Source: Promethearchaeota archaeon
Lineage (GTDB): Archaea > Asgardarchaeota > Lokiarchaeia > Sigyniarchaeales > SOKP01
Assembly (NCBI GenBank): GCA_048940925.1
Contig: JBHLOC010000062.1
Span: 1-22,056 of the forward strand
Direction of reading: 5' to 3'
DNA: 22,056 nucleotides
Shown: one piece after another, positions 10,651 through 12,716 of the stretch
How the letters are laid out: each line of letters opens with the position of its first letter
How positions within the stretch are numbered: position 1 is the first letter of the stretch
Notes under the pieces: generated by a model
Seen by the model: the letters and a program-made list of their open reading frames with translations, nothing else
Databases searched by the model: none
What the model was told of the DNA's origin: nothing
Position numbers and translations under genes: made by a program

Positions 10651-10713
10651 ATGCCTGAAGATAATGTTTATGATGCAGAGGATATCAAAGTCTTAAAAGG
10701 GCTCGAAGGCGTA
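10651..10713 (+). CDS. gyrB: DNA gyrase subunit B, exon 1 (21 codons)
   Basis: Encodes MPEDNVYDAEDIKVLKGLEGV, matching the conserved GyrB N-terminal Y-x-A-x-x-I-x-VL-x-GLE-x-V. It is in a different frame from the main ORF. Confidence 0.92.
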
Positions 10714-10766
10714 TACTCATTATTATAAATCTTTAACAAGATGCGCAATTCGCGCTGAGTCGCTAA
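10714..10766 (+). other. 53-nt candidate BHB/BHL-type mRNA intron in gyrB
   Basis: Contains a stop in each relevant frame (TAA 10726 and TAA 10764). Central helix GGCG/CGCU, bulges UA^U and AA^C, inner helix ACUCA/UGAGU. Removal restores [14 protein letters not shown]. Confidence 0.8.
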
Positions 10767-12716
10767 CGACGACGCCCAGCTATGTATATAGGGGATCGAG
10801 GAAAGAAAGGGCTCCATCACCTTATTTTTGAAGTTTTAGATAATTCTGTAGATGAAGCCATGGGAGGTTTTGCTGATGAAATTAAAGTTACACTTTATAA
10901 AGATAATTCAGTTCAAATCTATGATAATGGTCGCGGTATTCCAATTGGCACTCATCCAGAATTTAATAAATCTGCCCTTGAAGTTATTATGGAACATTTG
11001 CATTCTGGTGGTAAATTTGATAGCAAAAGTTATAAAATTTCAGGGGGTTTACATGGTGTCGGTTTATCAGTTGTGAATGCTTTGACAGAATGGATGAAAG
11101 TTGAAGTTTGCCGAGATGATCATTGCTATAAACAAAAATTTTCCAAGGGGAAAAAAGCGTCAGAGCCAGTTATAACGAAAATTAAGGCAAATGAAACTTA
11201 TACAAAAATAACTTTTTATCCAGATAAAGAAATTTTTGAGTTCGAACCAAATGAACCAATTTTTAATGAGACTACAATAACTACGAGAATAAGAGAGTTA
11301 GCATTTCTTACTCCTCATACTAGATTTGAAATTCATAATAAATTTAATGATGAAAAAAAAGAATTTCATTATGAGGGAGGTATTAAAGAATTCATCACTT
11401 ATTTGAACAAAGATAAACAGCCATTACATAATAATATAATATATATAAGTGACTCTTATAAGGATAATAATGGAGAAACGATATATTGCGACTTAGCTAT
11501 GCAGTACAATGCTGGATATCAAACAAATATTTTGTCATATGCTAATACCATTAATACCCTTGAAGGCGGAGTACATCTCACTGGATTCAAATCTGCTCTC
11601 ACTCGGACTTTTAACTCATATATAGAAAATTATATGGAGAAAAAATATAAAGACCATGTCTTAAGTGGGAGTGACACTCGAGAAGGTTTATCAGCAATTA
11701 TTTCTATTAAACTTCCTGAACCTCAATTTGAAAGTCAAACTAAGATAAAATTGGGTAATCCTGAAATTAGACAAATTGTAAGTCAAGTTGTTACCGAAAG
11801 ATTAACTCAATATTTAGAGGAGCATCCAAAAACTGCTAAGAAAATCGTGTTAAAAACGATAAATGCAAAGATTGCCAGAGAAGCTGCACAAAAAGCAAGA
11901 TCATTAATTCGAAGAAAATCAGCATTAGATAGTGCTAGAATGCCTGGAAAGCTTGCTGATTGTTCATCAAATGATCCAGAAAAGGTAGAATTATTTATAG
12001 TAGAAGGCGATTCAGCAGGTGGTCCTGCAAAGCAAGGAAGGGATAGGACTTATCAGGCGATTCTCCCGATAAGAGGTAAAATTCTTAATGTTGAAAAAGC
12101 TAGAATAGATAAAGTGCTACAAAATAATGAGATTCAGGCAATTATTAAAGCATTGGGAGTAGGCTTCCAAGAAGTCAATCAAACAGATGGAACAAACGGG
12201 TCATCGGATGAGAATGATGAAGAAGTGGAGGAAACCTTCGATTTAACTAAGTTGAGATATCATAAGGTTATAATAATGTGTGATGCTGATGTCGACGGAT
12301 TTCATATCGAAACTTTATTATTAACATTCTTTTTTAGATATCTGCGTCCTTTAATAGATGAGGGGCATCTTTATATTGCTGTTCCTCCTTTATATCAAGT
12401 ATCTTATAAAAAGTCAAAAGAATATGTGTATTCAGATAAAGAGAAGGATGCTTTAATCAAAAAAATTACACAAAAATATAAAATTAAGAATCTGGACTCT
12501 ATTCGCGTGCAACGCTATAAAGGTCTCGGTGAAATGAACCCCGATGAGTTGTATGAAACTACTATGAATAGAGAATCTAGAAAACTTAAGAAGGTAATTT
12601 ATGAGGATTATCTCGAAAATGATTTAATCTTTACTAAATTGATGGGTAAAGAAGTAAAATCAAGAAAGAAATTCATAATAAGTCACTTCGATGAAGTGAG
12701 TATATTAGATATTTAA
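10767..12716 (+). CDS. gyrB: DNA gyrase subunit B, exon 2 (joined product 670 aa)
   Basis: [52 protein letters not shown] and [10 protein letters not shown] motifs. Confidence 0.97.

Follow-up and report, generated by a model that had tools for sequence, protein, structure and literature searches.

The closest described system is the intron of cbf5 in the Crenarchaeota (Desulfurococcales, Sulfolobales; Watanabe 2002; Yokobori 2009, PMC2738675), a short element in the coding region of a housekeeping gene. Its bulge-helix-bulge (BHB) motif is of a relaxed form, cut between the second and third bulge residues by a hetero-oligomeric splicing endonuclease (EndA), and its distribution is lineage-specific and patchy, with losses (PMC2738675). 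In the searchable papers, an endonuclease-type intron within the coding region is confirmed for no archaeal protein gene other than cbf5 (PMC2738675, PMC7714728), and a 2020 paper still counted it as the sole case of this kind (PMC7714728). The subject here is an insert of 53 nucleotides (nt) in gyrB, the gene for DNA gyrase subunit B, of an archaeal genome of 4.8 Mb and 29.6% G+C, with close relatives deposited under Promethearchaeota (Lokiarchaeia-type Asgard archaea). The window, meaning the whole stretch of DNA analysed, is the entire 22,056-bp contig C83. The insert, at positions 10714-10766, is very probably an archaeal endonuclease-type intron with a relaxed BHB motif in the gyrB pre-mRNA, and it appears to share with the cbf5 intron each of the properties listed above. 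Unlike cbf5, gyrB is a bacterial-type gene and the phylum is Asgard; the 53-nt form has a branched fold that includes two internal hairpins, and the intron and its flanks appear to have a history separate from that of the gene body. Splicing of cbf5 has been shown by cDNA and in vitro cleavage, whereas for gyrB it is predicted.

The BHB intron of Haloferax volcanii HVO_1309, an EndA substrate in an mRNA and similar in size (46 nt), has been detected as circular RNA and cleaved in vitro (PMC7714728). Unlike the gyrB insert, it lies in the 5' untranslated region, where the reading frame is independent of it, and belongs with another type of EndA. Relaxed tRNA introns of HBh' or bulge-helix-loop (BHL) form in TACK and Asgard archaea (Marck and Grosjean 2003; PMC5829648; bioRxiv 10.64898/2026.10.13.758758) have the same geometry and presumably the same enzymes; gyrB differs from them in being a protein-coding mRNA without a tRNA body. 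The 2026 preprint on Asgard tRNA introns is silent on mRNAs (bioRxiv 10.64898/2026.10.13.758758), and the literature searches turned up no report of an archaeal gyrB with an intron, nor any of introns in Asgard mRNAs. A preliminary description of this DNA had stated that no gyrase intron was known, and for archaeal gyrB the searchable literature bears this out. The kind of intron is already known; the gyrB case is new.

Outside the Archaea, HAC1 and XBP1 also lose a short, structure-defined intron from an mRNA without a spliceosome, and in metazoa XBP1-type ligation is carried out by RtcB. Unlike gyrB, they depend on the endonuclease IRE1, other stem-loop signals and stress regulation. The parallel with HAC1/XBP1 drawn in the preliminary description holds for the chemistry, an endonuclease with RtcB-type ligation, and says nothing on homology of the systems, so it is kept as an analogy. 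Phage T4 gene 60 resembles gyrB in having a coding gap of ~50 nt in the gene of a type II topoisomerase subunit. Its bypass requires that the codons of take-off and landing match and that a stop be adjacent; gyrB has neither.

Reading frame and selection at gyrB

Exon 1 opens with an ATG at 10651 and reads MPEDNVYDAEDIKVLKGLEGV (21 codons) to 10713, after which its frame runs through YSLL into a TAA at 10726-10728. Another TAA, at 10764-10766, stands directly 5' of CGA CGA CGC CCA GCT ATG (RRRPAM), which starts at 10767 in the frame of the called open reading frame of 644 amino acids (aa) at 10782-12716, itself beginning with the ATG at 10782. The insert is stop-bearing and frame-shifting, and the unspliced RNA has coding capacity only for a 25-aa peptide or for a GyrB without its N-terminal arm. 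Excision of 10714-10766 in silico gives a GyrB of 21 + 649 = 670 aa. The preliminary description had given this product for cuts at 10713 and 10766, and both the product and all its coordinates and letters at the junction proved correct, to the base, when the open reading frames were re-read.

Exon 2 has the Pfam domains HATPase_c, DNA_gyraseB, Toprim and DNA_gyraseB_C, which together with the N-terminal arm in exon 1 identify the product as DNA gyrase subunit B. All matches of the exon-1 peptide in PDB (13/13, best E 0.0086) are N-termini of GyrB chains, exon 1 corresponding to residues 1-21 of the solved chains, and its Tyr aligns with Y5 of the GyrB N-terminal arm (PMC4159350). The gene is single-copy, with no second gyrB in the genome and no lesion other than the insert, and is followed downstream by gyrA at 12765-15203.

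Eighteen carriers of the insert were studied in detail, 16 with 52-53 nt and two with 33 nt; for three of the 16, insert, length and frame were confirmed, without tabulated pairs or energy. The 52-53-nt copies were gathered from named genomes, from two environmental contigs and by search with a covariance model built on the intron core. In 18 of 18 carriers, cuts placed behind the second nucleotide of either site restore the frame as GV joined to R(R/K/L/V)RPAMY, at lengths of 33, 52 and 53 nt alike; in G061, which has 52 nt, the frame is restored solely by removing 52 nt. Among the 16 species-level copies of 52-53 nt, the ratio of non-synonymous to synonymous polymorphism (pN/pS) is 0.22 in exon 1 (0.09 for codons 7-21) and 0.17 in exon 2. 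Exon 1 is under purifying selection, and since its pN/pS is near that of exon 2, a decaying leader is excluded. The exon-1 ATG is intact in every copy with a covered 5' end, and RRRPA, which lies 5' of the ATG at 10782, is conserved too. Exon-1 decay in insert-bearing relatives, named beforehand as an outcome that would speak against splicing, is thus not seen.

Public gene calls for the gyrB of carriers (P0002, P0004, P0012) begin at MYIG or within the intron, and current annotation truncates or mis-starts carrier GyrB. Within exon 1, in the region 10651-10700, the synonymous sites of TATGATGCAGAGGATAT are identical in nine of the ten first carriers and in three non-carriers, a degree of conservation that is unusual for the 5' end of a coding region.

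Table 1. Features of the gyrB locus in the window (RNA elements as predicted by folding)
Feature	Position	Strand	Basis
gyrB exon 1, MPEDNVYDAEDIKVLKGLEGV, N-terminal arm	10651..10713	+	Open reading frame, PDB matches, pN/pS 0.22
Predicted intron, 53 nt	10714..10766	+	Limits from the bulge rule and independently from homology; once in genome
gyrB exon 2, RRRPAMYIG... to stop, 649 aa	10767..12716	+	Pfam domains; sole gyrB
Central helix H, 5' strand GGCG (exon), pairs with 10761-10764	10708..10711	+	RNAfold, RNAalifold
Central helix H, 3' strand CGCU (intron)	10761..10764	+	RNAfold, RNAalifold
5' bulge UAU, predicted cut after 10713	10712..10714	+	Folding; cut rule (PMC2738675)
3' cut-site AAC, in internal loop, predicted cut after 10766	10765..10767	+	Folding, junctions of 18 carriers
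Inner helix h', 5' strand ACUCA, pairs with 10756-10760	10715..10719	+	RNAfold, RNAalifold
Inner helix h', 3' strand UGAGU	10756..10760	+	RNAfold, RNAalifold
Conserved G+C hairpin GCGC-AAUUC-GCGC, contiguous with h'	10743..10755	+	Folding, covariation
Variable A+U-rich hairpin, here AUCUU/AAGAU	10729..10742	+	Folding
Outer exon-exon helix, 5' strand GGGC (Gly-Leu codons), pairs with 10774-10777	10699..10702	+	Folding
Outer exon-exon helix, 3' strand GCCC (Arg-Pro codons)	10774..10777	+	Folding
Shared 5' module (see below)	10482..10810 (approximate)	+	Nearest neighbours are other carriers, not the closest relatives

Fold of the insert and splicing enzymes of the host

RNAfold on 10690-10790 and RNAalifold on an alignment of 12 copies were both run without structural guidance. 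The minimum free energy (MFE) structure from RNAfold holds the central helix, the 3-nt bulge, the inner helix, two hairpins within the insert and the exon-exon helix (Table 1), and the RNAalifold consensus is the same fold. In the 12-copy alignment 90.3% of the cells are paired, against 36-42% with the partners slid; pairing reaches 100% in h' and 97.9% in H, and the A+U-rich hairpin, whose register varies among copies, is 75% paired in a common register. Double-changed cells number 12, a count reached by none of 500 shuffles. Double changes in h' are C-G to U-A at pair 4 in three copies, U-A to C-G in L127 and C-G to G-C in the 33-nt form; those of the G+C hairpin are found in L114 and L047, and in the exon-exon helix covariation links the third position of a Gly codon with that of an Arg codon. 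Of the 18 carriers, 9 have the BHB fold as their MFE structure; in the rest it comes within 3.3 kcal/mol of the MFE. The z-score for folding of the whole region is only -1.6, and the full geometry of 4 bp + 5 bp in the frame-restoring register arises in 28 of 200,000 shuffled inserts (1.4e-4).

Compared with the strict hBHBh' motif, the central helix of 4 bp is present (GGCG/CGCU, with 4/4 pairs in 17 of 18 carriers), as is the 5' bulge of 3 nt, with UAU, UAA or UUA between H and an h' of 4-5 bp in every carrier. At the 3' site the MFE structure places AA (10765-66) opposite AA (10706-07) in a 2x2 loop, followed by UCG/CGA; because CGACGA is repeated, an alternative register with an AAC bulge, two mismatches and UCG/CGA at 10770-72 is also possible. 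The relaxed forms defined in PMC5829648 and PMC2738675 (HBh' or bulge-helix-loop), with one intact bulge between both its helices and the second cut in a loop, describe what is found. With its 3' cut site in an internal loop, the motif as modelled is therefore relaxed, as in cbf5, and bulge-helix-loop-like on the 3' side rather than canonical. The fold drawn in the preliminary description returns in the MFE structure for its helices and its 5' bulge, while the clean 3-nt bulge it had placed at the 3' site does not.

Exon codons that form the fold are constrained in carriers only. The comparison covers 18 carriers and 24 non-carriers, with p-values that overstate the case through kinship and a direction that is uniform. 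All 18 carriers use GGC or GGT as the Gly codon that feeds H; in non-carriers it is GGA (12), GGT (6), GGC (5) or GGG (1). The energy of the exon-exon duplex is -12.7 kcal/mol in carriers versus -7.0 in non-carriers. G+C at the third positions of the eleven junction codons is 0.46 versus 0.29, and in the rest of the gene 0.20 versus 0.21.

For the enzymes, the genome has one full-length, stop-free RtcB gene (L003, 556 bits). It encodes two paralogs of EndA, at L001:1453-2049 (minus strand) and L002:1210-1812 (plus strand), and both Pfam domains are present in each. Paralog 1 keeps Tyr, His and Lys and is most like the catalytic subunits of crenarchaeal heterotetramers; in alignment its His falls on the position that is mutated in 3ajv_B, and the Lys of its 'SKPR' on K44 of the specific loop of A. 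pernix. Paralog 2 has Phe in place of Tyr and no His. By these alignments the host EndA appears to be of the alpha/beta, broad-specificity kind, with the loop Lys linked to relaxed motifs. Asgard archaea have an (alpha-beta)2 EndA with this specific loop, and its Lys enables cleavage of relaxed motifs (PMC5829648); such motifs in cbf5 pre-mRNA are cut by hetero-oligomeric EndA, the rule being a cut between the second and third bulge residues (PMC2738675).

The proposed course of events is as follows. In the folded transcript, exon GGCG would pair with intron CGCU as the central helix, with the 3-nt bulge and the 5-bp intron helix on one side and, on the other, an internal loop closed by the exon-exon helix. 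The alpha/beta EndA of the host would cut after the second nucleotide of each site, after 10713 and after 10766; RtcB would ligate the exons and probably circularise the intron. The joined message (...GAAGGCGTA to CGACGACGC, 53 nt out) would encode the complete GyrB of 670 aa. From structure, conservation, frame, selection and enzymes together we infer both cleavage and ligation and their execution by EndA and RtcB. The earlier claim that gyrase expression depends on EndA/RtcB splicing thus gains from the comparative data, the selection on exon 1 and the enzymes present, and is to be qualified in that the motif is relaxed and splicing is deduced. An essential, single-copy Asgard gene would then be readable solely after removal of an intron. 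If RNA data confirm this, tRNA-type splicing would be routine mRNA maturation in the lineage nearest eukaryotes, and it would be clear that gene callers systematically truncate or split genes of this kind, which the public gyrB annotations already do. A tractable system would also be at hand, made up of one intron of 53 nt and two enzymes and offering natural presence/absence pairs (L042/L040 among them), in which to follow how introns enter, persist in and leave protein-coding genes.

Carriers and mosaic history of the gyrB 5' end

Within the genus some gyrB loci have a truncated open frame and others read through as GLEGVRKRPAMY. The covariance model of the intron core matches 12 of 54 genomes of the genus, once each and always at gyrB, and from the sister genus come two more copies of 53 nt along with two inserts of 33 nt, all at this one codon boundary. 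When the family was surveyed with a sequence pattern, 18 of 135 genomes, spread over three genera (12/54, 4/42, 2/10), gave a match; two of these are 30-nt forms known only as survey matches and standing outside the 18 carriers studied in detail; the reversed-pattern control gave zero matches. The insert was not found in three other families of the order (0/19). All inserts, the 30-nt ones included, share one identical codon boundary, and the G+C hairpin is absent from the 30- and 33-nt variants. In the genome and genus searches the insert is single-copy per genome and confined to gyrB, and it is found in independent assemblies, among them CP070831.1, a single-record chromosome of 3.34 Mb. Its presence in three genera and in 30-, 33- and 52/53-nt forms suggests that the intron is old at the DNA level, and it is patchy. 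The preliminary description had looked to the gyrB 5' ends of relatives for inserts with covarying helices; these exist at the same site, with helices kept and compensatory changes.

Several metagenome-assembled genomes of this set (those at L042, L039, L058 and L054) are deposited as Odinarchaeota, Thorarchaeota or Hermodarchaeota. Their gyrB is 80-87% identical to that of the Promethearchaeota of this family, and the phylum labels look unreliable.

In a quick tree of the exon-2 protein, carriers are scattered, with 9 label changes, at least 8 of them forced by well-supported branches. The nearest neighbours of gyrA are those of the gyrB body, which therefore reflects the local species signal. 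Yet carriers share a module of ~300 nt that runs from the leader through exon 1 and the intron into exon 2, of which it takes in the first 30-45 nt. In triplet tests a carrier clusters by its junction with another carrier, and by its body with the non-carrier that is its sister (Fisher p 0.016 to 1e-9). Part of the junction similarity could come from convergence for pairing; the shared leader is not explicable in this way. L042 and L040 form a clean presence/absence pair, with identities of 74-91% upstream and 78-95% downstream, and in L058 and L126 the intron lies within a different type of exon 1. The scattered carriers, set against their shared 5' module, therefore point to recombinational spread or replacement: the 5' end appears to have been exchanged or replaced between species by homologous recombination, be it with gain or with loss of the intron. 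No homing endonuclease gene was found near gyrB in the upstream spacers. A difference in upstream context, suggested by pairwise global alignments, was discarded, BLAST clustering showing synteny to be mostly shared and spacer length alone to differ.

Weighing of explanations and other interrupted genes

Several results weigh against an endonuclease-type intron. The 3-nt bulge flanked by H and h that a strict motif has at its 3' side is lacking; the pairing adjoining that site is not conserved, and the conserved exon-exon helix begins 6-7 nt beyond it. In L006 and L010 a competing fold is better by 2.7-3.3 kcal/mol. Covariation is modest, most pairs being invariant or changed on one side only, in sequences that are related. 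Spliced transcripts, sought through protein fragments and their contigs, gave genomic alleles alone, the continuous N-termini in those searches being intron-less genomic alleles with promoter, leader and non-pairing codons. Finally, an ab initio scan of the whole genome for helix-bulge-helix motifs that on excision fuse open frames gave 63 strict hits with the cuts in the right place, against 53-62 with the cuts shifted by 1-2 nt, which is no excess; in this A+T-rich genome (30% G+C) the motif alone has little predictive power.

The non-canonical 3' site, along with the conserved G+C hairpin of the 53-nt form, which has no explained role, would suit excision from the RNA by another endonuclease/ligase pair, or self-cleavage, that recognises the conserved hairpins. 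This is unlikely: the 30- and 33-nt variants without the G+C hairpin still keep the central helix and the bulge positions, all 18 carriers have their cut positions where the EndA rule puts them, no Rfam family matches, and an intron of group I or II would have to be far longer than 53 nt. It is very improbable that gyrB stays unspliced, whether as a pseudogene or as a GyrB made from the ATG at 10782 (MYIG...) without its N-terminal arm. Gene callers do start at MYIG or inside the insert (P0002, P0012, P0004), but the exon-1 protein is conserved across the 16 species-level copies (pN/pS 0.09-0.22) with its ATG intact where covered, the gene is single-copy and otherwise free of lesions, frame restoration keeps step with a 1-nt change in insert length, and RRRPA is conserved.

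Ribosomes might instead bypass the 53 nt by translational hopping of the phage T4 gene 60 type, with which gyrB has in common the gap size, the kind of host gene and hairpins in the gap. The codons speak strongly against this. Take-off would be at GTA or GTT and the codon before resumption is TAA, TAG, CAA, CAG, CAC or TAT, never matching in the 18 carriers, and no stop codon follows take-off; moreover, gaps of 30, 33, 52 and 53 nt have the helix-bulge geometry alone in common, and the covarying pairs are exon-intron pairs, so that hopping is given hardly any credence. That the insert is an artefact of assembly or sequencing, or a dispersed repeat that inserted recently, has a negligible probability. 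The same insert in many independent assemblies, in the 3.34-Mb chromosome and in environmental contigs refutes the artefact on comparative grounds, and a repeat is countered by the lack of any other copy in the genome. This uniqueness also ruled out a miniature inverted-repeat transposable element; a group I or II self-splicing intron was rejected for want of a ribozyme core in so short an insert, the Rfam scan of the window having found nothing, and an intein was ruled out, 53 nt being no multiple of 3 and the insert containing stops. The tRNA scan of the window found nothing either.

The gyrB insert is not the sole interruption of a protein gene in this genome: at least three other genes look alike, and their inserts, verified at the sequence level, serve as a precedent for the gyrB reading. 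In the gene for aIF2-gamma (L136, C68:44680-45936, minus strand) the P-loop GHVDHG-K-TTLV is split by an insert of ~30 nt with three stops, likely a second mRNA intron of the genome. In purA (L135, C41:43345-44780, minus strand) an insert of 31 nt lies between W-G and D-E-G-K-G-K; its central helix is GGGG/CCCC, and a cut after the second bulge base rebuilds WGDEGKGK. The third, in a PurM/HypE-like gene (L142, C30:66094-66123, plus strand), is a stop-bearing insert of 30 nt whose excision joins open frames of 168 and 301 codons; it has an inner stem of 9 bp and an outer helix of 11 bp and is the sole convincing hit of the ab initio scan.

It is conceivable, though rather doubtful, that endonuclease-type mini-introns form a genome-wide and essential tier of gene expression in the family, with gyrB, aIF2-gamma, purA and others all dependent on EndA/RtcB splicing, and that these introns are horizontally exchanged as a population, the gyrB intron passing between species in a homing-like manner, by gene conversion with a short exon tract and possibly through a nuclease encoded elsewhere. 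If true, mobile introns in protein genes and protein-only mRNA splicing would both exist in the closest prokaryotic relatives of eukaryotes.

Of the 45 tRNA calls that ARAGORN makes in the genome, 22 are reported with an intron; several of these introns sit at non-canonical positions, and some of the calls are doubtful (e.g. 'tRNA-Stop'). Upstream of gyrB, between it and a folP-like gene, a small zinc-ribbon gene (9870-10271) was considered as an intron case and rejected, being a pseudogene in this genome: its frame is kept with three in-frame stops (TAG, TAG, TAA), which fall where intact orthologs of 113-118 aa (L047, L115) are coding.

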